64,000 nt of DNA, taken from the NCBI GenBank assembly GCA_965205605.1, contig CBDBHE010000007.1:640001-704000 (forward strand), read 5' to 3'. The notes below the pieces were generated by a model. That model made no database searches. It was not told the origin of the DNA and saw nothing but the letters and a program-made list of their open reading frames with translations. The translations under genes were made by a program, and so were the position numbers. The DNA is from Spirochaetota bacterium (lineage in GTDB: Bacteria > Spirochaetota > UBA12135 > COTS27 > CBDBHE01). Of this stretch, positions 50,942-64,000 are shown one piece after another (positions within the stretch are counted from its first letter, which is position 1; each line of letters starts with the position of its first letter).

Positions 50942-52051
50942 TCATAAAGTAATAATATTAACAACATTGCCTTCATCATCGAGCTTTATAAGAACACTTG
51001 TTGGATACGTAGTTCCTTTTATGGTTTCACCTGAAATCAAAGTTCCGTGACTGACTTCGCCGTTTTCGTGAAATTTAACTTTAGTCAATTTAGCTGTAGT
51101 GCTTCCTTTAAAAGTTACCATTTCCGCATTTGCACCGCTCCCTACTTGTAGGGTTTGATCTCCTGAGGCTAAATATCCTTGACGGACTTCGTCGTTTTCG
51201 TGAAAGTTAATAGTAGTGCCTCCTTTAAAAGTTATCATTTTTGCATTTGCACCGCTCCCTACTTGTAGGGTTTGATCTCCTGAAGCTAACGCTCCGTAAT
51301 TGAAGGCACCGTTTTCGTAAAAATTAACGGTAGTGCCTCCTTTAAAAGTTATCATTTTTGCATTTGCACCGCTCCCTACTTGTAGGGTTTGATCTCCTGA
51401 AGCTAACGTTCCGTAATTGAAGGCACCGTTTTCGTAAAAATTAACGGTAGTGCCTCCTTTAAAAGTTATCATTTTTGCATTTGCACCGCTCCCTACTTGT
51501 AGGGTTTGATCTCCTGAAGCTAACGTTCCGTAATTGAAGGCACCGTTTTCGTAAAAATTAACGGTAGTACCTCCTTTAAAAGTTACCATTTTTGCATCGC
51601 TCCCTATTTGTAGGGTTTGATCTGAGACTAACGTTCCGTAACTGACTTCGCCGTTTTTGTGAAATTTAACTCTAGTGCTTTCTTTAAAAGTTACCATTTT
51701 TGCACCGCTCCCTATTTGTAGGGTTTGATCTCCTGAGGCTAACGTTCCGTAATTGAAGGCACCGCTTTCGTGAAAGCTAACGGTAGTGCCTCCTTTAAAA
51801 AGGAGAGCATGCTTTAGCCCTATTATTTCTTGATCTCCGTCTAATGCTGCTCTCTTTATGCTTCCATCCGGGTGCCTAGTTGCACTAGAACTAGAAGAAT
51901 AGGTAAGGTCTTCAGATGGGGTTACTTCTTCTTTTATTACTTTCAGCAATTCTGTTATTCTCGGCTCCTCTGGCAATTGCAATTCCAATTCTCCACAAGA
52001 GATCAAAGTAATTAAAAAGGCGATACTAAAAAAAAAAGTTATTTTTTTCAT
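50942..52051 (-). CDS. Repeat lipoprotein A: six 36-39-aa repeats plus a capping repeat (MORN-variant-like FxENG...GTL)
   Basis: Lipobox LITLISC; repeat FKGGTTVNFYENGAFNYGTLASGDQTLQVGSGANAKMIT. Confidence 0.88.
   Translation of the reverse strand: MKKITFFFSIAFLITLISCGELELQLPEEPRITELLKVIKEEVTPSEDLTYSSSSSATRHPDGSIKRAALDGDQEIIGLKHALLFKGGTTVSFHESGAFNYGTLASGDQTLQIGSGAKMVTFKESTRVKFHKNGEVSYGTLVSDQTLQIGSDAKMVTFKGGTTVNFYENGAFNYGTLASGDQTLQVGSGANAKMITFKGGTTVNFYENGAFNYGTLASGDQTLQVGSGANAKMITFKGGTTVNFYENGAFNYGALASGDQTLQVGSGANAKMITFKGGTTINFHENDEVRQGYLASGDQTLQVGSGANAEMVTFKGSTTAKLTKVKFHENGEVSHGTLISGETIKGTTYPTSVLIKLDDEGNVVNIITL
51110..51800 (-). repeat. ~117-bp coding tandem repeats, three nearly identical units centrally
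   Basis: Recurrent gggtttgatctcctga.gctaacgttccgt core at ~117-bp spacing. Confidence 0.92.
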
Positions 52052-52241
52052 GGTTTTTCTCTTTCACTATTTTATGAAATAATAAAAGCGTTTTAATAAT
52101 TAATTATAGTATAAAAATATTATAAATACTAAGAAATATTATAAATGCTAAGTGTAAGGCTTGGTATTTAAATTTAATCTCTGTTGGAGCGTGATTATTT
52201 TTTAAATTTAAAAAAAAGGAAAATTTTTATCGATGACCACG

Positions 52242-52260
52242 CTGAGCATAATGTGCTCAG
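52242..52260. other. Palindrome at the duplication junction
   Basis: CTGAGCA-TAATG-TGCTCAG within the 22-nt spacer between copies A and B. Confidence 0.75.
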
Positions 52261-52401
52261 ATTGATTGATTCCATTTTAAAAGCATTTTACTTAAAAAGA
52301 AATTATTTTTTGACAACAATTTACAAGTTTCTTTTTATTTATTTATATACAATCCGTAGGATCCCCAGTTCCTATGATTTTCTCTTGCTCATAACATAAG
52401 C

Positions 52402-53242
52402 TCATAAAGTAATAACATTAACAACATTACCTTCATCATCAAGATTTATAAGAACACTTGTTGGATACGTAACTCCTTTTATGGTTTCATCTGGAACTAA
52501 CGTTCCGTGACTGATTTCGCCGTTTTCGTGAAAAAAAACTCTAGTGTTTCCTTTAAAAGTTATCATTTCCGCATTTGCATCGCTCCCTACTTGTAGGGTT
52601 TGATCTCCTGAGGCTAACGTTCCGTGACTGACTTCGCCGTTTTCGTGAAAATTAACTGCAGTGCTTTCTTCAAAAGTTACCATTTTTGCATTTGCACCGC
52701 TCCCTACTTGTAGGGTTTGATCTCCTGAGGCTAACGTTCCGTAACTGACTTCGCCGTTTTCGTGAAAAAAAACTATAGAGCTTCCTTTAAAGGTTATCAT
52801 TTTTGCATTTGCACCGCTCCCTACTTGTAGCTAAGGTTTGATCTCCTGAGGCTAACGTTCCGTGACCGACTTCGCCGTTTTCGTGAAAGTTAACTATAGA
52901 GCTTCCTTTAAAGGTTATCATTTTCGCATTTGCATCGCTCCCTATTTGTAGGGTTTGATCTCCTGAAGCTAACGTTCCGTGACTGACTTCGCCGTTTTCG
53001 TGAAAGTCAACTGTAGTGCCTCCTTTAAAAAGCAAAGCATGTTTTAGTCCTATTATTTCTTGATCTCCATCTAATTTTGTTCTCTTTATACTTCCATCCG
53101 GGTACCTAGTTGTACTAAAATAGCTAAGGTCTTCTGATGATGGGGTTACTTCTTTCATTAATTCCGGCTCCTCTGGCAATTTTCTACAAGAGATCAACGT
53201 AATTAAAAAGGTGATACTAAAAAAAAAAGTTATTTTTTTCAT
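52402..53242 (-). pseudogene. Repeat lipoprotein B (four repeats plus cap), frameshifted by a 4-nt insertion
   Basis: Extra CTAA at 52831-52834 relative to sister repeats; removing it gives one 278-aa ORF joining 52787-53242 and 52402-52800. Confidence 0.88.
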
Positions 53243-53707: not shown

Positions 53708-55009
53708 CTAGAGTGCTTTAAGCATTCTTTCAAAAACAAGCTTAAACTTTCGTTTTATTGTTTTCAACCTAATCATAATCATCGGAAAAGAAATAAAAAA
53801 ACTTTCATATTGAGAAGGGGGTAAATAAATCCCTGTTTGTAAACATGCTTTAAAAAATTTTTCATAAAGCTTGAGGTTTGATTTTAGGACTTCTTCGTAA
53901 AAAGTAGGTTTTTTAGAGGTAAAAAAAATGGTCATCATAGAGCCTATTCTTTGAATACTAGCGGGTATTTGGTATTGAGTGATGAGGCTTGTTAGGGTTT
54001 CTTCAAATTTAAAAGACCAAGTATTGAGTCGAGCATAAAAGTCTTTTCTCCTTTCAATTTCTTCTAAACTAGCCAGTCCTGCTGCCATTGCAATAGGGTT
54101 TCCAGATAAAGTCCCTGCTTGGTAAATCCCTCCCTCAGGAGCAAGATCTTTGAAAAAACTAGCTTTGCCTCCATACGCTCCTACAGGAAAACCTCCCCCA
54201 ATAATTTTTCCAAAAACACTAAGATCGGCATTCACCTTATATAGTCCTCCCGCTCCTTTAGTACCCATTCTAAATCCAGTCATGACTTCGTCAAAAATTA
54301 GTAATGATTTATTTTGCTTACTGATTTTTCTCAGTCCTTCAAGAAATCCTTCCTTAGGTAAAACTACTCCCATGTTTCCAGCAATAGGTTCGACAATGAT
54401 GGCTGCGATCGTTTGCTTATTTTTTTCAAAAAGAGCCTCAACACTTTTTAAATCATTAAAACGAGCGATTAGTGTATCTTTTGCATTGCCTTCTGTTACA
54501 CCCAAGCTACTTGGTTTCCCAAGAGATAATGCCCCAGATCCTGCTTTAATCAGAAAAAAATCGGCATGCCCATGATAACAGCCTTCAAATTTAATGATTT
54601 TTTCTCTTTTTGTTACACCTCTTGCCAAACGAATGGCTGACATGGTGGCTTCAGTGCCTGAATTAACCATTCTTATTTTTTCAATAGAAGGCACCCACTG
54701 TTTGATTTTTTGAGCTAAAGCAATTTCTAGAGGACAGGTAGCTCCAAAAGTAGTGCCTTTTTTTAAAGCATTTTGGACTTCCTTGATGACTTTTTTATTT
54801 TGGTGCCCTAAAATAAGAGGGCCATACGATCCTACAAAATCAAGGTATCGATTACCATCGACGTCATAAATATAGGCTCCCTTTCCTTTTTTAATGATTA
54901 ATGGACTGGCATTAACACTTTTAAAAGCTCTTACAGGAGAATTCACTCCCCCAGGAAGGACTTTTTTGGCTTCTTTAAAGAATTCTAAACTTTTTTTATG
55001 TTTCTTCAT
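53708..55009 (-). CDS. hemL: Glutamate-1-semialdehyde 2,1-aminomutase
   Basis: PGGVNSPVRA, NSGTEATM, FDEVMTGFR, GKIIGGG, QAGTLSGNP. Confidence 0.97.
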   Translation of the reverse strand: MKKHKKSLEFFKEAKKVLPGGVNSPVRAFKSVNASPLIIKKGKGAYIYDVDGNRYLDFVGSYGPLILGHQNKKVIKEVQNALKKGTTFGATCPLEIALAQKIKQWVPSIEKIRMVNSGTEATMSAIRLARGVTKREKIIKFEGCYHGHADFFLIKAGSGALSLGKPSSLGVTEGNAKDTLIARFNDLKSVEALFEKNKQTIAAIIVEPIAGNMGVVLPKEGFLEGLRKISKQNKSLLIFDEVMTGFRMGTKGAGGLYKVNADLSVFGKIIGGGFPVGAYGGKASFFKDLAPEGGIYQAGTLSGNPIAMAAGLASLEEIERRKDFYARLNTWSFKFEETLTSLITQYQIPASIQRIGSMMTIFFTSKKPTFYEEVLKSNLKLYEKFFKACLQTGIYLPPSQYESFFISFPMIMIRLKTIKRKFKLVFERMLKAL

Positions 55010-55042: not shown

Positions 55043-55945
55043 TTATTTTAATTTTTTTTTAATCACCTCTACCATCAAAGGAACCTTTTCTCTAGCTTCT
55101 TCTATCTTAAAATCTGTATATAAAGGAATAATATTTTTTCTTTGTTCATCGCTTACCAAAGTTTTAAAATAAAGACGGTTTTTTTTGATATAAGCATACG
55201 CACTTAAAGGAGACTGGCAAGAGGCATTTAAAGCATTCATAAACATTCTTTCTGCTTTGGCACAAATTTCAGTTTTTTTGTCATTAATTTGTTTGAGATG
55301 TTGAAGCAATGTTTTGTTTTCTATAGGACATTCGATGGCAATGATCCCTTGCCCGGGGGCGGGAATAAAGTCGCTGGTTGAAAAAAAATGAATGTTGGCA
55401 TAATGAAGTCCTAGTCTTTTAATCGCTGCATTTGCCATAACGATAGCGTGATAAGGTCCTCTTGGGTCTTTTAATTTTTTGATTCGAGTTTCGATGTTTC
55501 CTCGTATCGCCTTGAAAATAAACTTTTTTTTTAAATACTCTAAATTCATCATTCTTCTAGGGCTACTAGTGCCAATAATAGAGTGCTTAGAAAGCTCCTT
55601 AAAGGTTGTTTTTTCTTCTTTAATTAAAAGAATATCCCTTGGGTCTTCTCGTTTTAAATAAGCGGCAATGATGAGTCCTTTGGGTTGATCTTTTGGCATA
55701 TCTTTTAAACTATGCACCGCCAAATCACTTTCTTTTTTGATTAAAGAGGCTTCTAATTCTTTTACAAAAACACCTTCCCCTCTAAAATGCCAAAGAGGCT
55801 CTTTTGCTTCATCTCCTTTAGTTTTGATAGGAAGGATTTTTGTTTTGAGTTTAGAATCAAGAGTTTGTAAGAGTTTTTGTACTTGTTTAGCTTGCACTAA
55901 GGCTAAAGTGCTCTTTCTAGTGACGATGGTTATACAAGATTTCAT
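55043..55945 (-). CDS. hemC: Hydroxymethylbilane synthase
   Basis: TRKSTLALVQ, AVHSLKD, GTSSPRR, RGNIETR, PAPGQG. Confidence 0.95.
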   Translation of the reverse strand: MKSCITIVTRKSTLALVQAKQVQKLLQTLDSKLKTKILPIKTKGDEAKEPLWHFRGEGVFVKELEASLIKKESDLAVHSLKDMPKDQPKGLIIAAYLKREDPRDILLIKEEKTTFKELSKHSIIGTSSPRRMMNLEYLKKKFIFKAIRGNIETRIKKLKDPRGPYHAIVMANAAIKRLGLHYANIHFFSTSDFIPAPGQGIIAIECPIENKTLLQHLKQINDKKTEICAKAERMFMNALNASCQSPLSAYAYIKKNRLYFKTLVSDEQRKNIIPLYTDFKIEEAREKVPLMVEVIKKKLK

Positions 55946-55978: not shown

Positions 55979-57184
55979 TTAGGGTTTGTTTTTTTTAGGT
56001 AATGATTTTTGATTTAAGTTTTTAATAAATTGGTTTAAGATATCTTCAATAAGTTTTTGATTTTCTTGTGCAAGAAAATGCATTTTTTTTGAGAAAAAAG
56101 AAAGAGTTTTTTGTTTGATCAGCTGTAAATCTTGTGGATTGTTTTCTAAGTTTCGAAGACTTTTTTGTTTCCAATACCACTTAGAGTAGTCATTAAGATG
56201 TTCTAAAATAATTTCACTTGCTTGAGCAAAATGATGGTGTCGATTTTTTTTATGACTATCAATAATAATTTTCAAATCATCGATAGAATATAAAATAAAA
56301 TGATCAAAATCATTGATGGTTGGATCAACATTTCTAGGGACCGATAAATCAATAATTAAGGTTGTTTTCACCCCGTAAGTTTTAATAAGAGGGTTTAAAA
56401 CATCTTTTTTAATAATAGGTGATTTGGAAGAAGTAGAAACAATGGTGACATCTGATTTGATAAGATATTGATGTTTTTCCTCGTAAGGGATCCAACTTCC
56501 GCTCACTTTTTTTGCTAAATCTTTTGCTTTTTTTTTAGAACGATTGGTAATCATGAGGTGTGCTTTTGTTCTTTTTTTTAAATGAGAAATCACATTTTTA
56601 CCCACTTTACCAGCTCCAATAATTAAAATATTGTTTTTAGTATTAAGAGAATGAATTTTTTTTACAAGTTCTACGCAAATAGAGCCAATAGAAACATTTC
56701 CTTTATTAATACCAGTTTGAGCCCTGACTTGTTTTCCTACTTGGATGGCTGTTTGAAAAACTTTATTGAGAATGCTTTCTGTTGTTTTTTTTTCAAGGGC
56801 TTTAAAATAAGCTTTTTTAACTTGTCCTAAAATTTCGTTTTCTCCTAAAATCATCGAATCCATCCCACAAGCAACTTTATAAAGATGTTCGATGGCATTA
56901 AGACTACTTTTTTGATAAATTTTTTCTTTTAAAGGGTGGATTTTTAATTTATGATGTTGTGTTAATACTTCGAGCATCTCTTTTAGTCCTTCTTTAGGTT
57001 GTTTTGAAACCCCATAATATTCCACTCGATTACACGTGCATAAAATAACGATGCCTTTAAGTGATTTGGCATGAGTTTTAATTTGAGGTAAAACTTGGTT
57101 TAATTTCCCTTCTGAAAGAAAAAATTTTTCTCTTAATTCTAAAGGAGTGGTTTTATGATTAAGCCCAATAAGGAGAAGATCCAT
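55979..57184 (-). CDS. hemA: Glutamyl-tRNA reductase
   Basis: HKT...RE, TCNRVE, DSMILGENEILGQ, GAGKVG, DLSVPRNV. Confidence 0.95.
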   Translation of the reverse strand: MDLLLIGLNHKTTPLELREKFFLSEGKLNQVLPQIKTHAKSLKGIVILCTCNRVEYYGVSKQPKEGLKEMLEVLTQHHKLKIHPLKEKIYQKSSLNAIEHLYKVACGMDSMILGENEILGQVKKAYFKALEKKTTESILNKVFQTAIQVGKQVRAQTGINKGNVSIGSICVELVKKIHSLNTKNNILIIGAGKVGKNVISHLKKRTKAHLMITNRSKKKAKDLAKKVSGSWIPYEEKHQYLIKSDVTIVSTSSKSPIIKKDVLNPLIKTYGVKTTLIIDLSVPRNVDPTINDFDHFILYSIDDLKIIIDSHKKNRHHHFAQASEIILEHLNDYSKWYWKQKSLRNLENNPQDLQLIKQKTLSFFSKKMHFLAQENQKLIEDILNQFIKNLNQKSLPKKNKP

Positions 57185-57185
57185 T

Positions 57186-57983
57186 TTAATTTTTAATTAA
57201 AGATAATGTAATAAGAATGCTTAAAAATCCAAATGCGTATAGTTTTAGATAGGTTGTTTTTGAAGCCTTGTTGATTTTCTTTAAAAAAAGAAATGTGAAA
57301 AAAATCAAAATGGTAATACTAGAAGTAATTAATTTGATAATAATAGGTTTTGAAAAGTTTTGCGTCATCGAAGAAAATTGATACCCTAGTAAAAATCCAA
57401 CAGTTAATAATAGACAACTAATAAAAATAAAAGTATTAATTTGTTTTTCTAGTAATTCTAAAGAAGGTAAGCGCTGAAATAAAAAAGAATCTTTTTTTTC
57501 TTTGATGTTTTTAAATCGTTGGTTAAAAATAATCGTTAAAAGAAAACTATAGCAGATAAGGCCGTAAGCTAAAAGAGAAACTGAGATATGACCAATAATA
57601 ATGAGTTGATGAGTATGATAGGGGGTGTGAAGATTGGCAAAAGGAGGGTAGAGCTGTGCTTGAAGAAAAATAAAAGTAATGACGGGAAAAACAAAAATTC
57701 CCATAAAAAAATGTTGACTAAAATAATTCATTAAAACAAAAATGGCATTTAAAGCCCACGATAAAAAAACAAGGGATTCATATAAATTTAAAAATGGGAG
57801 TCGTTGTCGATTGAGACTAAAGACAACAAGATAAAAAGTAGATAATAGCATTGTGACAATGGCAAAAAAAGAAACAGTAAGACGAAGCTTTGTATTAGAA
57901 TGAATGAAGTAAATAATATTTAAAATACACACAAACATTAGCAAAGAAGCATAAATTGTTTTAAGGATACTTTCTAAAATCAT
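57186..57983 (-). CDS. ccsA: Cytochrome c assembly / HemX-like membrane protein
   Basis: About 8 TMs, LYESL, HIS...LLAYG, RLPSLELLE; directly upstream of hemA. Confidence 0.75.
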   Translation of the reverse strand: MILESILKTIYASLLMFVCILNIIYFIHSNTKLRLTVSFFAIVTMLLSTFYLVVFSLNRQRLPFLNLYESLVFLSWALNAIFVLMNYFSQHFFMGIFVFPVITFIFLQAQLYPPFANLHTPYHTHQLIIIGHISVSLLAYGLICYSFLLTIIFNQRFKNIKEKKDSFLFQRLPSLELLEKQINTFIFISCLLLTVGFLLGYQFSSMTQNFSKPIIIKLITSSITILIFFTFLFLKKINKASKTTYLKLYAFGFLSILITLSLIKN

Positions 57984-57999
57984 TATTTTATAGAATCAA

Positions 58000-60309
58000 T
58001 TACTTGATAGCAAAAAAATTAAGTTGACTTTTTGTATCTGTAATTTCTTCAATTAAATCTTGGTAAGAAGTGGAAGAGAGGGTGGATTCTAAAATTGGTT
58101 TAATTTGTTTTTCTAGATAATATTTATAATCAATAGAATTAGATTGGTTTGCAATAGGTTCGGGGCCTTCTTTAGTCATAAAATACTGAATATAAAAAGG
58201 CTTTTCTCCTTTTATTTTTTGAGCGGCTTGAAGGTGAAGAGGGAGAGATTTTTCATAAGTTTTTGTTGATTTTTTAAATCTTTTTTTGAAAATCAGCAAA
58301 GAATCTTCTTGTCCAGCAAGCAGCGATTTTTTAAGCTCTCTGATGATTTCACTTGGGTCTTGATTTTCAAAAAGGGCATTAATAATTTTTTTTTGTAGTT
58401 TTATAGCAATAGAAACAAAATCTTTTTTTATGGATTCGATTCCTTTTTCAACCCATTCTTTAGCAACTTCCTTTACAGCGATGTATTGAGGTTTTAGTTT
58501 ATCAAAACTAATTGATTTTTGTTCAAATAAAAATATTTTTTCATAAATATTTTTTATTTCAACTTTCAAATAAGAGTGAGCTTTGTACTTTTTTTTTAAA
58601 GTTTTTTCCCAGTAATGATTGAGTCGTTTACAAAGTTGTTGTATTTTTGATAAGAACTCTGTTTTATTAGAAGCAGAGATGATCATGCCTTCTGTATCGG
58701 CATAAAGAATTTCCCACCCCCAGGATTCTATTTTTTTCACGCTTTCTAAAGTAAAATAGGTGGCATTTTTGTTAATGGAGTCAAAAAGACCACTAAGGGC
58801 AAAACGGCTGCGAGGATTATTTAAAGTTGAAATCAGAGAAAAGAGGATTGAAGTGCTTGCTTTTTTCATTAAATCATTTTGTTCTTTATTACTTGATTTT
58901 GCTTTATTTAGATAGTCTTCGATAAGGGAAGGGAGAATATGTTTGGTGGTATGAAATTTAATTCCTCGAGGACTTGAAATGCTTTGAGTAGGATCTTGAA
59001 TGGCTTGCATTTTTCCAAGAGGATCAATTTTAAAGGTTTGTACAATAGAAGGAAAAAAATCCTTAAAATGAATCACACACACTTTGCCAAATGCACCATG
59101 CTTAGATTCGATAATATCTTCTGAAAAATCAGTATTGACAGGAGACGTCTTTTTTTCATTAGGTGCCACAAAGCGCTTTTGATGCAGTTTAGGCAAATAG
59201 AGATTATCAAAAACATAATTTGTGTTTAAAGCTCTTTCAATATACACTCCGCTTAGCAAGTAATGAGTTAATTTATACAAAAGAATTTTTTCTTTTTCAA
59301 AAATTTGACAGACTAGTTTTGAATCTTTTAAATTGTACTCAGCTAAGACTTCTTTTTGATTTAAGAAAAGAGATTCAATTTGTTTGATTTTTTTTTTGCC
59401 GGTTGCTTCAATTAATTTTTTCTCACCTAACAACACACTAGCTGCTGAGTCGAGTCGATAATCAGGCAATTTAATGTTTAGCCATTTTAACATTTGTATC
59501 CCATCTAAAATGAATCTTCCAGGGATTCTAATAATTAAACCTTTTTTATTTTTAGGTCGAAATGATTCGATGTTTCTTCTTTCAACTCCAATACAAAAAT
59601 CAAGATGATATTGTTGGTATTTTTTAATTAAAAAATCAAAATCAAAATTAACAACATTCCAACCGATAAAAACTTGAGGATTAATGATGTGGATTTCTTC
59701 AATAAAGGCTTTTAAAAGTTCTTTTTCATTAGGGTAATATTGAATGTAACCTTTTTTTTTAGAGGCTTTACCCCATATGATTAAAACTTTTTCTACGTTT
59801 TTACTATACAAACTAATGCAATAAAGATCTTTGTTGTTATTTCCTGTTTCGATATCAATTGAAAGAAGATTTAGTTCAATAGAGTTTTTGCAGTGATTGA
59901 TTTTAGGATTTTTAAAAATAAAATCATTTTCTTTTTTTTCGGTGGGTAAGCTTTCAAAATTAATACTTCCTTTAATATTTTTTTCCATTAAATAACGCAT
60001 TGAAGGTTCGATATCGGCTTCATATTGCTTATCTTTATCGATAACCTCACAAGCGTTTTTTAAATCTTTTTCTGTATTGAAATAGAGCAAATCAAGTGGT
60101 TTATTGTCTAAGGTTTTAAATTTTTTATTAATGATTTTTTTTGTTGTGTTTCTAATGGCTTGTTTTTTTTCTGCTGTAAAAAGAAGAAGATAAGGTTTTT
60201 CTTGTTCCCAGATGAAATTTTTTCCGTTTTCTAAAACCCCAAAATAAAGTAATTTAGAATCCGTATTTCCGATGTTTTCACAAGTGCCATTGATAATAAG
60301 TCCTTGCAT
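58000..60309 (-). CDS. polB: Family B DNA polymerase II homologue; exonuclease intact, polymerase site degenerate
   Basis: YEADI, Exo I SIDIET, Exo II GWNVVNFD, Exo III YNLKD, TFKIDPLG, KGIE, DYKYYLEKQIKPI, C-terminal QLNFF. Confidence 0.88.
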   Translation of the reverse strand: MQGLIINGTCENIGNTDSKLLYFGVLENGKNFIWEQEKPYLLLFTAEKKQAIRNTTKKIINKKFKTLDNKPLDLLYFNTEKDLKNACEVIDKDKQYEADIEPSMRYLMEKNIKGSINFESLPTEKKENDFIFKNPKINHCKNSIELNLLSIDIETGNNNKDLYCISLYSKNVEKVLIIWGKASKKKGYIQYYPNEKELLKAFIEEIHIINPQVFIGWNVVNFDFDFLIKKYQQYHLDFCIGVERRNIESFRPKNKKGLIIRIPGRFILDGIQMLKWLNIKLPDYRLDSAASVLLGEKKLIEATGKKKIKQIESLFLNQKEVLAEYNLKDSKLVCQIFEKEKILLYKLTHYLLSGVYIERALNTNYVFDNLYLPKLHQKRFVAPNEKKTSPVNTDFSEDIIESKHGAFGKVCVIHFKDFFPSIVQTFKIDPLGKMQAIQDPTQSISSPRGIKFHTTKHILPSLIEDYLNKAKSSNKEQNDLMKKASTSILFSLISTLNNPRSRFALSGLFDSINKNATYFTLESVKKIESWGWEILYADTEGMIISASNKTEFLSKIQQLCKRLNHYWEKTLKKKYKAHSYLKVEIKNIYEKIFLFEQKSISFDKLKPQYIAVKEVAKEWVEKGIESIKKDFVSIAIKLQKKIINALFENQDPSEIIRELKKSLLAGQEDSLLIFKKRFKKSTKTYEKSLPLHLQAAQKIKGEKPFYIQYFMTKEGPEPIANQSNSIDYKYYLEKQIKPILESTLSSTSYQDLIEEITDTKSQLNFFAIK

Positions 60310-60313
60310 TTTT

Positions 60314-61828
60314 TTAGAAAGCGTTTTGATGTTTTAAAGAGATGATAAAAAAATAAGTAAAAGCTAAAAAATAAAGAAAAGATAAAGAGACTAAACCCCA
60401 TTCATTTTTAGAAAAAAATAACAAGAAAGCTAAAATCGTATAAACACTTAAAGACAATTCAACTAAGATAATCAAGCTATTTTTTGAAGATTTATATAAC
60501 AGTTTTTTCTTAGTCTTCTTAGTGGTTTTTACAGAGGAGCCTGTTTTTGGAGTCCTAACAAAATGATTTTTTTTAGGGTTTGCTAAAAGAGCGCTAATAA
60601 CAGCGATTGAATTATTAGCAGCACTGCCTAGTCCCAACAAGACTAAAGCAGGAATCAAACGAATCTCTCTTAGGCAATTTTTTCTAAATAAAGCTATTTG
60701 AGAGCATGTATACATGAGCATAGGAGAAAGAAAACTACATACGAAAATGAAAATTATTAAAGGAATAAACTCTTCTTTAATAAGATAATTTTTGCTTTTA
60801 TAAAAAATAATTCCAAGAGGGACAAAAATTAAAACGGAAGTAAGGATAATAAGACTAATCCCATAATGAAGTAGATGAAACGAAGATTCTATTTTTTGTT
60901 TGATTTTAATAGGGCTTTTCCAAATAGGTAGCAGTAATTTTTTAGCCGTTTGAATGGAGCCTTTTGCCCACCTGTATTGCTGTGTTTTATAAGAGCTGAT
61001 ATTTTCAGGGATTTCTGAAGGACAAACAATGTAAGGTAAATAAACCATTTTCCATCCTTTTAGCTGGGACCTGTACGAAAGGTCTAAATCTTCAGTGAGG
61101 GTATCTGCTTGCCATCCCCCGGCTTCTAAAATGGCTTGTTTTTTCCAAATGCCAGCGGTGCCATTGAATCCAAAAAAAAGTTTGTTCCAATACCTGGCGG
61201 ATTGTTCTATAATAAAATGGCCATCAATTCCAATCGATTGAGTGGAAGTAATTTGATTGGTTTTTCGATTGGTATAGCCCCATCTTGTTTGCACCGCTCC
61301 TACTTTTTTGTTTTTAACAAAATGAGGGATAGTGTGTTTTAAAAAATTTTTAGGAGGGAGGAAATCGGCATCAAAAATAGCAATAAAATCTGCTTTTGAT
61401 AATAATAACCCATTTTGAAGGGCTCCTGCTTTAAAGTCAATTCTTTTTTCTCGGTGAATGTGAGTGATCAAAAATCCTATTTTTTGATATTTAGCAACAA
61501 TTTTTTCGATGATTTCTTTGGTTTCGTCAGTCGAGTCATCTAAAATTTGAATTTCATGTTTTTCTTTAGGGTAGTTTATTTGAGTGATTTTATCAATGAT
61601 TCTTTTGACAACAAATTTTTCGTTAAAAACAGGGATTTGGGTTAGGACTTTAGGGAGGTCATCGAGGGAATGAGATCGATAAAATTGTCTAATAAATTGT
61701 TTGTCATTTCCAATTTTTTTTTTGTGCTTTAAAAATAAATAAGTAATGTAAATATAGTGAATCCCAAAGATAGAAAAAATTAAGGCACAAAGAAGATAAA
61801 TGATTTCAAAAAAGAAAAGAAGATTCAT
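60314..61828 (-). CDS. Membrane GT2 glycosyltransferase, cellulose-synthase-like
   Basis: ILDDS, FKAGAL, FDADF, TEDLD and QYRW (D,D,D,QxxRW); flanking TMs. Confidence 0.92.
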   Translation of the reverse strand: MNLLFFFEIIYLLCALIFSIFGIHYIYITYLFLKHKKKIGNDKQFIRQFYRSHSLDDLPKVLTQIPVFNEKFVVKRIIDKITQINYPKEKHEIQILDDSTDETKEIIEKIVAKYQKIGFLITHIHREKRIDFKAGALQNGLLLSKADFIAIFDADFLPPKNFLKHTIPHFVKNKKVGAVQTRWGYTNRKTNQITSTQSIGIDGHFIIEQSARYWNKLFFGFNGTAGIWKKQAILEAGGWQADTLTEDLDLSYRSQLKGWKMVYLPYIVCPSEIPENISSYKTQQYRWAKGSIQTAKKLLLPIWKSPIKIKQKIESSFHLLHYGISLIILTSVLIFVPLGIIFYKSKNYLIKEEFIPLIIFIFVCSFLSPMLMYTCSQIALFRKNCLREIRLIPALVLLGLGSAANNSIAVISALLANPKKNHFVRTPKTGSSVKTTKKTKKKLLYKSSKNSLIILVELSLSVYTILAFLLFFSKNEWGLVSLSFLYFLAFTYFFIISLKHQNAF

Positions 61829-61858
61829 TAAACAATTTTTTTTTAAAAAAAAAATAAT

Positions 61859-62479
61859 TTAAATTATAGCATAAAGTTGCTCTAAATCTTCTTTATTATC
61901 AATATCAAAAAGCTTTGGCAAAAGAGAGAAATTAATTTTATTTTTTTTACTTTGTGTTATTGTTTGTGATAAAACTTGTTCATTACTCCATGAAATGCCT
62001 TTAAATAAAGAAAAGAGTTGTTTGTTACTTTTTCTAAGCCCTATTAAATAATAACCCCCATCTTGAGTCGGCCCTAAAACAAGGTCTTTTGTTTCAAGTA
62101 ACCTAAAGGCTTTGTTTAAAATGGCATGAGAAATAAAAGGAATATCACTGCCAATAATCACTACCTTATCAGAAGGTTTAATGAGGTGATTTTTAAAAGC
62201 CAAGGCCATTTTTTCTCCTAAATTATTTCCTGTTTGTTTAAAGCATTTTTTTTTAAAATCAGTCATTTGTTTAGAAATTTTTTTTAAAAAATGCCCTTTT
62301 ATTTGATCAATATAAAAATAAATTTGATATGTTTTTGGTAATCGATAAAGAGATTCTAAACGAAAGGATAATAGTTGTTGGTAAATTAAGCAAGCTTTTT
62401 TAAATCCAATTTCTTTTCCGAGTCTTGTTTTAACTTTCCCAACTTTGGGGTATTTAAAAAATAAGATAATGGTTTTCAA
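61859..62479 (-). CDS. TIGR04282/DUF2064 family transferase (arsenosugar/rSAM-associated)
   Basis: KYPKVGKVKTRL, Q.G.NLGEKM, IGSDIP, LGPTQDGGYYLIG, ISWS, DID..EDL. Confidence 0.88.
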   Translation of the reverse strand: MKTIILFFKYPKVGKVKTRLGKEIGFKKACLIYQQLLSFRLESLYRLPKTYQIYFYIDQIKGHFLKKISKQMTDFKKKCFKQTGNNLGEKMALAFKNHLIKPSDKVVIIGSDIPFISHAILNKAFRLLETKDLVLGPTQDGGYYLIGLRKSNKQLFSLFKGISWSNEQVLSQTITQSKKNKINFSLLPKLFDIDNKEDLEQLYAII

Positions 62480-62493
62480 AAAAATAAATCCGG

Positions 62494-64000
62494 TTATTTG
62501 TAATAAAGTTTGTATAAAATTTCTCCCCCTTTCTTAGGTGAAAAAAAACGAAAAATAAAATAAGACAAAAATAAACTAATCACTTTAACCACATTAAACC
62601 ATTTTGGGCCTTGTTTCCACTTTCTCATTGAAATAACGCCTCCATTTTTAAGTGAAGTAATCCTTCCACTGGCTTTTATTTGAAGACAAACTTCCACATC
62701 TTCAAATAATTTTATTTTTGGAAAACCGCCAGTAGCTTCCAAAGCTTCTTTTTTAAAGCACTGGATTTGATCCCCAAAACTAATTTGAGTCAAAAACACT
62801 CTTAGATTGTTAAGTTTGCTAATCCGCTTCATTTGTTTTTCTTCACGATATTGCATTGAAAACGAAAGCATTAAAATATTTGGGTTTTGTAAAAAAGTTT
62901 TTTTCATTCGCCCAAGGGTATCTTTATAAATCATAACATCACTGTGTAGTACGCAAATAAGGTTTCCTTTTGCTTGTAAATATCCTGCCTCAATTTGATA
63001 GCCTCTTCCTTTTTGACTTGTAATGACCCTGGCACCATGTTGTTTGCCTAAGGCGATGGTTTTATCTTCTGAACCCCCATCAGAGATGATGATTTCAAAG
63101 GGGATTTTAGAGTTGTTTTGTTTGATCGCTTTAATACAGTTTGAAATGGTTTTTTCTTCATTGAGGGTGGGAATAATAATGGTGATTAAAGGATCTTTGA
63201 TTTTTTTTCTAGAAAAGCCAAAGAGTTTATTTTGATACCACTCTACAAATAAACAACCTAAAAAAGGAAGGTAAATGAAATATTTTGCCAAAGGATATTC
63301 TTGCCAAAGTCCACTTGTGTAAAATCGATGGTAAAGAGGGAATGAGAAAATAAAACAAAAAGTCCATAAAAAAATACTACGAGTTTTAAAAAAAGCATTT
63401 AAAATTAACAGCATCCCTAAATACCAAGGGTGAATTATTGGAGAAAACAGTAAAAACAATAAATAAAAGAGAAAACAAGTCCGAATTAAATTGGCAGAAA
63501 ATAATAAAAAATACCCATAAATGATTATAAAGACACTTCTCATCATAAGAGGGGTGTTAAATAGCTTGATGCCCAAGGTATGAAAAAATGAATTATAAGA
63601 CATCTCCGTTCCAAAAGTAATCAGTGAATTAAGAAGAGTGGGTTCACCTCTCTGGTAATAAGGAGCGTATAACAATAAAGATAAGAGCGTTAAGAACATT
63701 AATTTTAGAGGGTGTTTTTTTAGAAAGAGTGGGAAAAAAAGAATTGAGGTGATTTTAATCTGTAAAGAAGCTAAGTAAAAAATAAGCATCATCATGGGTG
63801 ATTTTTTGTCTTTATATAAAAAAGCAAGCAATAGAAAAAATATTTGTACAACATCAATATGACCTTCTCCAATCACAAAAAAAAGCCAAAGAGGATTGAG
63901 AGCAATTAAAAAAGTAACATTAGGGTCTTTTTTGTTTTTTTTAAGCAGTAAAAATAAAATTCTTAAAATCCCAAGAGACAAAAGGCAAATAAAAACTTTA
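62494..64000 (-). CDS. Fusion of GT-C (GT87/DUF2029-like) membrane domain and TIGR04283-like GT2; frame open to the window end, so 5' part missing
   Basis: LNPL...GEGHID, SPIIHPWY; C-terminal IIIPTLNEE, DGGSED, GRGYQ...G, LHSD, FGDQ, GGF...LFEDVE. Confidence 0.82.
   Translation of the reverse strand, partial: KVFICLLSLGILRILFLLLKKNKKDPNVTFLIALNPLWLFFVIGEGHIDVVQIFFLLLAFLYKDKKSPMMMLIFYLASLQIKITSILFFPLFLKKHPLKLMFLTLLSLLLYAPYYQRGEPTLLNSLITFGTEMSYNSFFHTLGIKLFNTPLMMRSVFIIIYGYFLLFSANLIRTCFLFYLLFLLFSPIIHPWYLGMLLILNAFFKTRSIFLWTFCFIFSFPLYHRFYTSGLWQEYPLAKYFIYLPFLGCLFVEWYQNKLFGFSRKKIKDPLITIIIPTLNEEKTISNCIKAIKQNNSKIPFEIIISDGGSEDKTIALGKQHGARVITSQKGRGYQIEAGYLQAKGNLICVLHSDVMIYKDTLGRMKKTFLQNPNILMLSFSMQYREEKQMKRISKLNNLRVFLTQISFGDQIQCFKKEALEATGGFPKIKLFEDVEVCLQIKASGRITSLKNGGVISMRKWKQGPKWFNVVKVISLFLSYFIFRFFSPKKGGEILYKLYYK

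Follow-up and report, generated by a model that had tools for sequence, protein, structure and literature searches.

In a 64,000-nucleotide stretch of DNA from an uncultured Spirochaetota bacterium (GenBank assembly GCA_965205605.1, contig CBDBHE010000007.1, positions 640,001 to 704,000 of the forward strand; hereafter the window, with coordinates counted from its first letter), we analyzed a gene at 58000..60309 on the minus strand that encodes P0001, a homologue of DNA polymerase II (Pol II) with destroyed polymerase motifs and intact 3'-5' exonuclease motifs. Computational comparison established the loss of the polymerase motifs, the retention of the exonuclease motifs and of a C-terminal tail, the conservation of this form throughout the order to which the bacterium belongs, and the decay of the PHP site of the replicative polymerase in that order; DnaQ was not found in searches of the bacterium's own genome. 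From this pattern we infer that P0001 and its orthologues (hereafter dead Pol II) have exonuclease activity, bind the beta sliding clamp, and are linked to DnaE, the alpha subunit of DNA polymerase III (Pol III). Replication fidelity in bacteria is attributed to two proofreaders, the PHP domain in Pol III alpha or the DnaQ epsilon subunit. Our favored reading, which we hold with modest confidence to be the probable one, is that dead Pol II, tethered to the clamp, acts as a 3'-5' exonuclease and serves Pol III as a proofreader in trans.

P0001 is encoded by a single open reading frame (ORF) of 769 amino acids (aa), with an ATG start and a stop codon at 58000-58002. An earlier reading of the window from its sequence alone (hereafter the original prediction) had described this ORF as uninterrupted, as the ORF list and our translation of the ORF confirmed. 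Given the base composition of the gene, 769 codons would be free of stops with a probability of 1.6e-29; each of the five alternative frames across 58000-60309 contains 43-92 stops. Using phmmer, we identified Escherichia coli Pol II (1q8i_A) as the closest solved relative (E 1.3e-80), with residues 70-744 of P0001 aligned to residues 76-765 of the chain. A Pfam scan identified PF03104 as the only strong domain (E 1.5e-16 over residues 94-288, with a score of 61 bits where the cut-off is 23), along with a weak match to PF13482; the polymerase domain PF00136 did not match even at E ≤ 1. The NCBIfam equivalog model for Pol II (NF004421) aligned over residues 16-749 with 492.6 bits, below its cut-off of 570. 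Structure prediction had been named as a check in the original prediction, and AlphaFold2 produced a model with a predicted local distance difference test score (pLDDT) of 89.7 and a predicted template modeling score of 0.86, in which only the tail (residues 761-769) fell under a pLDDT of 50 and was modelled as disordered. Foldseek matched this model best to 3k5l_A, also E. coli Pol II (E 4.9e-61; template modeling score 0.85), and the match ran end to end; the predicted fold of P0001 is that of a complete Pol II. P0001 combines end-to-end homology to Pol II and a predicted Pol II fold with scores that stay below the curated family cut-offs (NF004421 and PF00136).

We set the positions of the polymerase motifs by the phmmer alignment of P0001 to 1q8i_A; all features of the gene lie on the minus strand. 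In the degenerate motif A (VCVIHFKDFFPSIVQ, 59038..59082), the segment vlvlDYKSLYPSIV of E. coli Pol II aligned with vcviHFKDFFPSIV of P0001, and the catalytic Asp is replaced by His414 (codon 59068-59070). The degenerate motif B (ASTSILFSLISTL, 58822..58860) has lost the K, N, Y, and G of the consensus KxxxNSxYG, with ALKIIMNAFYG of E. coli Pol II aligned to ASTSILFSLIS of P0001. In the degenerate motif C (ILYADTEGM, 58684..58710), YGDTDS has become YADTEG, and the second Asp is replaced by Glu540 (codon 58690-58692). A KxY remnant (KLKPQYI, 58480..58500) aligned with the primer-binding KKRY of E. coli Pol II, which reads KPQY in P0001. The original prediction had called the substitutions in motifs A and C at these same codons, the entire loss of motif B, and the change from KKRY to KPQY, and the alignment to 1q8i_A upheld each of these calls.

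The same losses occur throughout the dead clade, a group of ten Pol II homologues that includes P0001. In the alignment, none of the ten members retains motif B, the Asp of motif A, or the DTD of motif C. At the position of the motif A Asp, the ten members carry H, Y, S, E, N, A, N, M, H, and K, and motif C reads YSHKNK, YYDNSC, YSDHRT, DADGES, YYNQST, YYDTHI, FYSHES, and YYDPTI in other members. We also scored a dead-clade profile against 1.84 billion metagenomic representatives, which gave 10773 matches at E ≤ 0.001, and examined the best 150 of these; 118 of the 150, together with 3 added active reference proteins, make up a set of 121 active rows. The catalytic Asp positions of motifs A and C read DDD in 121/121 active rows. 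Residues K486, N490, and G494 are ≥98% conserved in the active representatives and reach 0-19% in 21 dead-clade representatives, and K607, found in 100% of the active representatives, occurs in 10% of those that are dead. The shifted Asp of HFKD in P0001, raised in the original prediction as a possible replacement for the lost metal ligand, was rejected as a candidate: this residue is not conserved, because P0002, which is 87% identical to P0001, reads YFKH at the same place, and the remaining members share no acidic residue there.

We placed the N-terminal domain at residues 1-140 (59890..60309) and the 3'-5' exonuclease domain, which contains the PF03104 match, at residues 141-354 (59248..59889); both boundaries are approximate. 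Exo I reads SIDIET (59845..59862), of which D152 and E154 are invariant in 10/10 rows of the dead-clade alignment. Exo II (GWNVVNFDFDFL, with D223; 59629..59664) reads NVVNFD at the E. coli Pol II positions, and G216, W217, N218, F222, and D223 are invariant in the ten rows. Exo III (YNLKDSKLV, with Y325 and D329; 59311..59337) reads YNLKD at the E. coli Pol II positions, and Y325, N326, and D329 are invariant in the same alignment. The five DEDDy residues (D152, E154, D223, Y325, and D329) are invariant in all ten dead-clade members and in 70/70 rows of the wider alignment A2. All three motifs had been described as intact, and the alignment to E. coli Pol II agreed. P0001 passes the Pfam cut-off for PF03104 and has the DxE, NxxxFD, and YxxxD residues of a DEDDy exonuclease. 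PF00929 (RNase_T) is absent from its Pfam matches, and the Exo III residue is Tyr rather than His, so it does not carry the DEDDh signature. P0001 may work like epsilon, yet by its sequence it falls outside the DnaQ/PF00929 family; it is a Pol II descendant without the defining catalytic features of Pol II, for which an epsilon-like role is proposed outside the epsilon family.

Whole-genome searches identified a homologue in the bacterium's own genome and in all 8 other genomes of the order, and in 0/32 sampled genomes outside the order (1 of the same class, 31 of the same phylum). Dead Pol II is present in all 9 species genomes that make up the order, which represent 7 genera and 5 families; the sole other genome of the class has no homologue. 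Among the 120 best of 607 homologues, precomputed Pfam matches lack PF00136 only for P0001, P0002, and P0005; the last is 32% identical to P0001 and carries the source annotation “3'-5' exonuclease [Spirochaetota bacterium].” All dead-clade members are open frames, with lengths of 766-838 aa. In an IQ-TREE phylogeny of 50 rows, the ten dead forms fall on one side of a branch with a support of 100 in the Shimodaira-Hasegawa-like approximate likelihood ratio test (SH-aLRT). The topology inside this clade matches the families of the genomes, and its end branches are long (1.0-1.6 versus a median of 0.16).

We used per-domain protein identity in place of the ratio of nonsynonymous to synonymous substitution rates (dN/dS), which is unsuited to the same-genus pairs (G005/G007 and G006/G008) because they show about 1 change per column and synonymous sites would be saturated. 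Mean pairwise identity was calculated for 9 dead forms and for 60 active Pol II proteins, with approximate domain limits that we set. In the N-terminal domain, identity was 0.31 among dead and 0.34 among active forms (ratio 0.92), and in the exonuclease domain it was 0.42 and 0.45 (ratio 0.92). The ratios were lower in the part of the palm containing motif A (0.26 and 0.52; ratio 0.50), the fingers (0.27 and 0.53; ratio 0.51), the part of the palm containing motif C (0.18 and 0.49; ratio 0.36), and the thumb (0.26 and 0.53; ratio 0.49). Within the dead clade, conservation is highest in the exonuclease domain, and 56 of the 67 positions with ≥85% conservation among 21 dead-clade representatives precede residue 377. 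These comparisons indicate that constraint in the dead clade has shifted to the exonuclease half. Identity between P0001 and P0002 is even between domains (0.84-0.95), and the polymerase-derived half is therefore relaxed without drifting freely now. The original prediction had argued for repurposing rather than decay and had proposed comparing relatives for neutral decay across the whole gene. The ratios of 0.92 in the exonuclease half show no such decay, and repurposing gains comparative support from the constraint on that half and from the same combination of dead polymerase and live exonuclease in 9/9 order genomes; decay is a poor explanation because orthologues with this pattern occur in 9/9 order genomes and in 0/32 outside. 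The largest genome of the order (G004, 5.4 Mb) encodes a dead form (L005/L162, on contig C148) and also a further Pol II whose motifs A, B, and C are intact (L010/L163, on contig C111), which may be a paralogue or a recent acquisition.

Polymerase loss extends beyond the order. Among the best 150 of the 10773 metagenomic representatives, 32 are missing one or more of the three catalytic Asp residues; 27 of these 32 are full length, all 27 of which retain the exonuclease residues DEDYD, and 28 of the 32 have a clamp-type motif at the C terminus. In a FastTree phylogeny of 79 rows, 24 dead rows form one clade (support 100). The dead proteins P0149, P0151, and P0164 nest among Ignavibacteria-like active Pol II proteins (support 98), and P0219, P0252, and P0262 stand apart with a support of 91, although their position is unsure given their long branches; both of these outlying groups keep DEDYD and a QLxLF tail. 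The tree requires at least two changes of state, which suggests that polymerase loss with retention of the exonuclease originated repeatedly. Host genomes of the P0149 group were not found in two overlapping samples around an Ignavibacteriales genome, 401 genomes from its class and 401 from its order, in which the best identities to P0149 were 39% and 43%. Within the order of that genome (G402, Ignavibacteriales by its locus title), 160/401 sampled genomes match P0149 at E ≤ 1e-100 with 34-43% identity. Four long representatives (P0191, P0196, P0220, and P0223; 1073-1202 aa) open very large alignment gaps inside motifs B and C of all other rows, and we guess that their inserts are inteins.

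The tail of P0001 contains a candidate beta-clamp-binding motif, QLNFF (residues 762-766; 58012..58026). The original prediction was right about the presence of this motif and wrong in stating that the protein ends with it, as the actual end is QLNFFAIK, three residues longer. A motif of the form Qxx[LFM][FL] occurs in the last 12 residues of 8/10 dead-clade members, and the other two have ELSLF; a C-terminal motif of this type is also found in 90/121 active representatives. The bacterium's own DnaE has QVTLF at residue 920. When we predicted a complex between its DnaN and residues 700-769 of P0001, the score was 0.50 (0.50, 0.48, and 0.50 in separate runs), whereas the best of 3 controls scored 0.00; at least 74% of contacts agreed between runs, and the pLDDT of the partner was ≥55. 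In the benchmark for this score, the mark was reached by 58/80 solved complexes and 2/110 mismatched pairs, counts that apply only roughly to the DnaN complex, for which we used our own alignment, and a pass may reflect resemblance alone, as similar clamp-peptide complexes have been solved.

We then related the distribution of dead Pol II to the proofreading genes of the host. Papers are cited here by PubMed Central number. The bacterium's own genome (1.69 Mb in 8 contigs, 91% complete) encodes a single Pol III alpha subunit and DnaN (L151:745-1866). We took the nine-ligand PHP motif, HHDHEH[C/H]DH, from section 14 of PMC12926913 and aligned DnaE to the Pol III alpha subunits of Thermus and Mycobacterium. 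The own DnaE reads HHKFEPGER at these positions, and its PHP domain is the only one in the genome. Across 41 genomes, the PHP site is degenerate in 9/9 genomes of the order and exact in 31/32 others, with the remaining one reading HHDHEHSDH. This decay beside dead Pol II in all 9 order genomes is a new observation that the original prediction had missed, and it is the strongest point in favor of a role in proofreading.

The original prediction had also proposed checking whether the genome lacks dnaQ or mutSL. PF00929 (RNase_T/DnaQ) gave no match in the own genome, with control matches in 10/14 known genomes. We also built a DnaQ hidden Markov model (HMM) from eight small spirochaete DnaQ-like ORFs and searched all six-frame ORFs at full sensitivity; the model recovers 5/5 positive controls, and over the own genome it found nothing better than E 0.12, a match to the Pol I frame. 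Neither search found a dnaQ in the genome; MutS and MutL are present. Across the order, RNase_T has no match in 4/9 genomes (G000, G006, G007, and G008), and in the single-contig genomes G006 and G007 there is none even at E ≤ 1. A simple rule that the presence of dead Pol II equals the absence of RNase_T was rejected, as 5/9 order genomes have RNase_T and 9/32 genomes outside the order are without it; all nine of the latter keep an intact PHP. With the failure of this complementarity, the PHP site is the informative variable.

In a phylum sample of 401 genomes, 15 outside the order match the profile, and motifs A, B, and C are intact in each of the 11 that we aligned. Three single-contig genomes outside the order (G209, G331, and G379, the latter two of the same genus; loci L176, L198, and L201, and L211-L213) combine a degenerate PHP (HHHLERPDH, HHRDDRGDY) with an active-looking Pol II, and each carries a small RNase_T ORF (121-131 bits). 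These genomes look like cases in which, within the phylum, PHP gave way to DnaQ as in E. coli, so that elsewhere in the phylum a decayed PHP is paired with a DnaQ-like gene. Within the order, dead Pol II is the only universal candidate proofreader that we identified in the genome sequences. The 3'-5' exonuclease region of the own Pol I (L149:1468-4026, minus strand, contig C6) by eye reads FDLET, NLKYE, and YTFED, which would be an intact or near-intact DEDDy site with Glu in place of the Exo II Asp.

Because DnaE lacks the PHP ligands and no DnaQ epsilon is evident in the order, we propose a trans-acting replicative proofreader. In the proposed mechanism, dead Pol II would no longer polymerize and would still act as a DEDDy 3'-5' exonuclease. 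The retained Pol II body (N-terminal domain, palm, fingers, and thumb) could grip the primer-template junction, while the C-terminal QLxFF tail could dock on the beta sliding clamp, placing dead Pol II in the second pocket of the clamp dimer, the one not used by DnaE. Mismatched 3' ends released by DnaE would then be captured, trimmed, and handed back. In E. coli, there is evidence from genetics that Pol II removes errors left by Pol III, alpha and epsilon fill two clamp pockets, and joint proofreading defects of Pol III and Pol II are synergistic (PMC11253446); the sharing of the clamp and this synergy provide a precedent for proofreading in trans by a Pol II relic.

Several observations weigh against this proposal. 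The own genome is 91% complete and in 8 contigs, so a dnaQ gene could lie in a gap. Some RNase_T-family protein is present in 5/9 order genomes, and any of these could proofread there: Pfam identified a fusion of RNase_T, CBS, and DUF294 in G001 and G005, a 751-aa frame in G003 resembles this fusion by eye only, the RNase_T ORF of G002 is cut by a contig end, and G004 has a small RNase_T ORF with a weak match (65 bits). The own genome also encodes, along with MutS and MutL, a Pol I with a PF01612 exonuclease domain, and the cell may get by without proofreading of its replicase or rely on different nucleases. Among 14 spirochaete genomes outside the order with active Pol II, PHP is intact in 11 and degenerate in 3, so Pol II alone does not go with PHP loss. 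PHP decay and dead Pol II co-occur in one clade, which amounts to one evolutionary event, not nine. The complex prediction lends weak support to the predicted clamp binding, as passing scores of 0.60 or below account for only 7/80 solved complexes but for both mismatched pairs that pass. An operon clue was also tried and rejected, as the conserved neighbors of the gene are heme-synthesis genes, which give no hint on replication. Finally, none of the 7 sequencing runs listed is an RNA run, and the stretch is contained in 2 runs of one sample and study. In the fusion ORFs of G001, G005, and G003 (L144, L145, and L146; 706-751 aa), an N-terminal RNase_T domain is followed by CBS and DUF294/DUF294_C nucleotidyltransferase-like domains, the first two ORFs being assigned by Pfam; RNase_T ORFs of similar length also occur in PHP-intact spirochaetes.

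The main rival explanation, unlikely in our view though it carries real weight, is that dead Pol II is a clamp-tethered 3'-5' exonuclease for repair, unrelated to DnaE, which would act at stalled forks, gaps, mismatch-repair tracts, or blocked termini while the decay of PHP is unrelated or otherwise compensated. The sequence features that point to a live exonuclease and to a clamp tail fit this role as well, MutS and MutL would need an excision nuclease, the RNase_T proteins of five order genomes might do the proofreading, and the original prediction had already suggested end processing. However, a repair role leaves unexplained the loss of PHP ligands in 9/9 genomes of the order against the exact motif in 31/32 outside it, as well as proofreading in the four order genomes with no RNase_T match, and the other PHP-decayed spirochaetes have a small DnaQ-like ORF.

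The other explanations are less likely than a repair exonuclease. A noncatalytic scaffold or regulator, with a parallel in eukaryotic Pol epsilon and its inactivated C-terminal half, would contact the clamp or DNA and make no cut; the complete Pol II fold retained in the predicted structure would suit it, and inactivated family-B polymerase (PolB) modules with a structural role are known (PMC7544198), but it is very unlikely given that the five DEDDy residues are invariant in 10/10 clade members and present in all 27 full-length dead representatives, and that the exonuclease domain is the best conserved part. Polymerization through a noncanonical active site is slightly more improbable still. 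Archaeal PolB2 (Dpo2), once predicted to be inactive, is reported to work as a translesion extender (PMC8764526), and the motif C Asp D538 remains in P0001. However, all three motifs and KxY are gone, with different residues in each member, and no acidic residue is shared at the motif A position or at the second Asp position of motif C. The sole invariant carboxylate in residues 386-610 is D429 of an IDP turn that is common to active forms, and the deoxynucleoside triphosphate (dNTP)-binding residues R470, K486, N490, and K607 occur in 0-19% of dead representatives. We rejected slow neutral decay of a pseudogene, the chance of which is negligible: the loss of polymerase motifs and the long end branches are what such decay would leave, but full-length open frames persist in 10/10 members across five families, the absence of stop codons would be exceedingly improbable, the exonuclease motifs do not vary, and P0001 and P0002 match each other evenly from domain to domain.

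E. coli Pol II (PolB group G1; PDB 1Q8I, 3K57) shares with P0001 full-length homology, the predicted fold, Exo I-III, and a C-terminal tail of the QLxLF type, whereas P0001 differs in having motifs A, B, C, and KxY destroyed, no PF00136, and a score below the equivalog cut-off. The G1/Pol II group is described with both the exonuclease and the polymerase site conserved (PMC12926913), and the dead clade departs from this description. DnaQ epsilon is likewise a separate 3'-5' exonuclease of the DEDD superfamily with a clamp motif that serves a DnaE with an inactive PHP, the role that we propose for dead Pol II (PMC11253446, PMC12926913). However, P0001 is a PF03104 DEDDy protein rather than a PF00929 DEDDh protein, exceeds epsilon in size about fourfold, and still includes a fossil polymerase body. 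We know of no epsilon-like PHP-binding segment in P0001. The PHP proofreader of DnaE1 in Mycobacterium tuberculosis and Thermus, whose exact motif is kept in 31/32 spirochaetes outside the order, is the function apparently replaced; in the order its ligands read, for example, HHKFEPGER, and the protein proposed to replace it has an unrelated fold and would act in trans.

Other inactivated PolBs (the C-terminal half of Pol epsilon, archaeal B2, and bacterial G2) also kept the PolB body after catalytic loss (PMC7544198). Their exonuclease motifs are degraded along with altered polymerase motifs (PMC7544198, PMC12926913), whereas dead Pol II is the reverse, with exonuclease motifs intact, and PolB2 differs further in having proved to be an active polymerase (PMC8764526). 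The noncanonical DnaQ of mycobacteria, a second proofreader, sets a precedent for replicative proofreading outside the classical alpha-epsilon core; it belongs to the RNase_T family and acts with an active PHP (PMC11348249), whereas in the order the PHP site is inactive and the proposed proofreader derives from PolB. A survey of 3070 genomes found some lineages with neither a PHP nor a DnaQ proofreader, raised noncanonical proofreaders as possible in bacteria with an inactive PHP and no canonical DnaQ, and named among such lineages the Chlorobi, all of which carry a G3 PolB (PMC12926913). The string “spirochaet” is absent from the main text of that paper. Our literature search found no description of a Pol II from bacteria in which the polymerase is dead and the exonuclease live, although the supplementary tables of PMC12926913 and PMC7544198, which lay outside the search, might list such proteins.

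Taken further, dead Pol II would represent a third kind of bacterial replicative proofreader beside PHP and DnaQ: a family-B polymerase reduced to an exonuclease on the beta clamp, next to a family-C replicase without an editing site, fixed in a spirochaete order and arisen at least twice in metagenomic lineages. We regard this broader claim as a serious possibility that falls a little short of probable. If true, a fossil polymerase from a different family can be taken into a replisome as its editing subunit, and the dead clade would be a natural experiment that splits the exonuclease role of Pol II from its polymerase role. It would also answer the open question on noncanonical proofreaders (PMC12926913), and it would suggest that active PolBs in lineages without PHP or DnaQ proofreaders, such as the G3 PolB of Chlorobi, are also kept for their exonuclease. 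Annotations of such genes as “DNA polymerase II” or “3'-5' exonuclease” could then be corrected.

The genes around P0001 in the window are co-directional on the minus strand. Downstream, a heme-synthesis row starts with a 265-aa membrane protein that resembles Cytochrom_C_asm by Pfam (57186..57983) and continues with hemA (GlutR; 55979-57184), hemC (porphobilinogen deaminase; 55046-55945), and a class-III aminotransferase (53711-55009). This gene order (Pol II homologue, then an ORF of about 265 aa, then GlutR) was found in 6/7 loci examined and was missing in L139; loci L095, L217, L218, L219, and L220 also bear on this neighborhood. The upstream neighbors vary between loci and include a family-2 glycosyltransferase (GT2), peptidase S49, leucyl-tRNA synthetase, and lipoyl synthase. 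We treat the heme-synthesis row as context and not as part of the dead Pol II system. Beyond this row, three ORFs at 50945-53242 (minus strand; 369, 132, and 151 aa) match no Pfam family at E ≤ 1e-5. Upstream of P0001, a row at 60317-63981 (minus strand) encodes a 504-aa GT2, a 206-aa DUF2064/CofC-like protein, and a 495-aa membrane protein with a GT2 domain; the gaps in this row are small, with 4 bases between the 504-aa glycosyltransferase and the Pol II relic.

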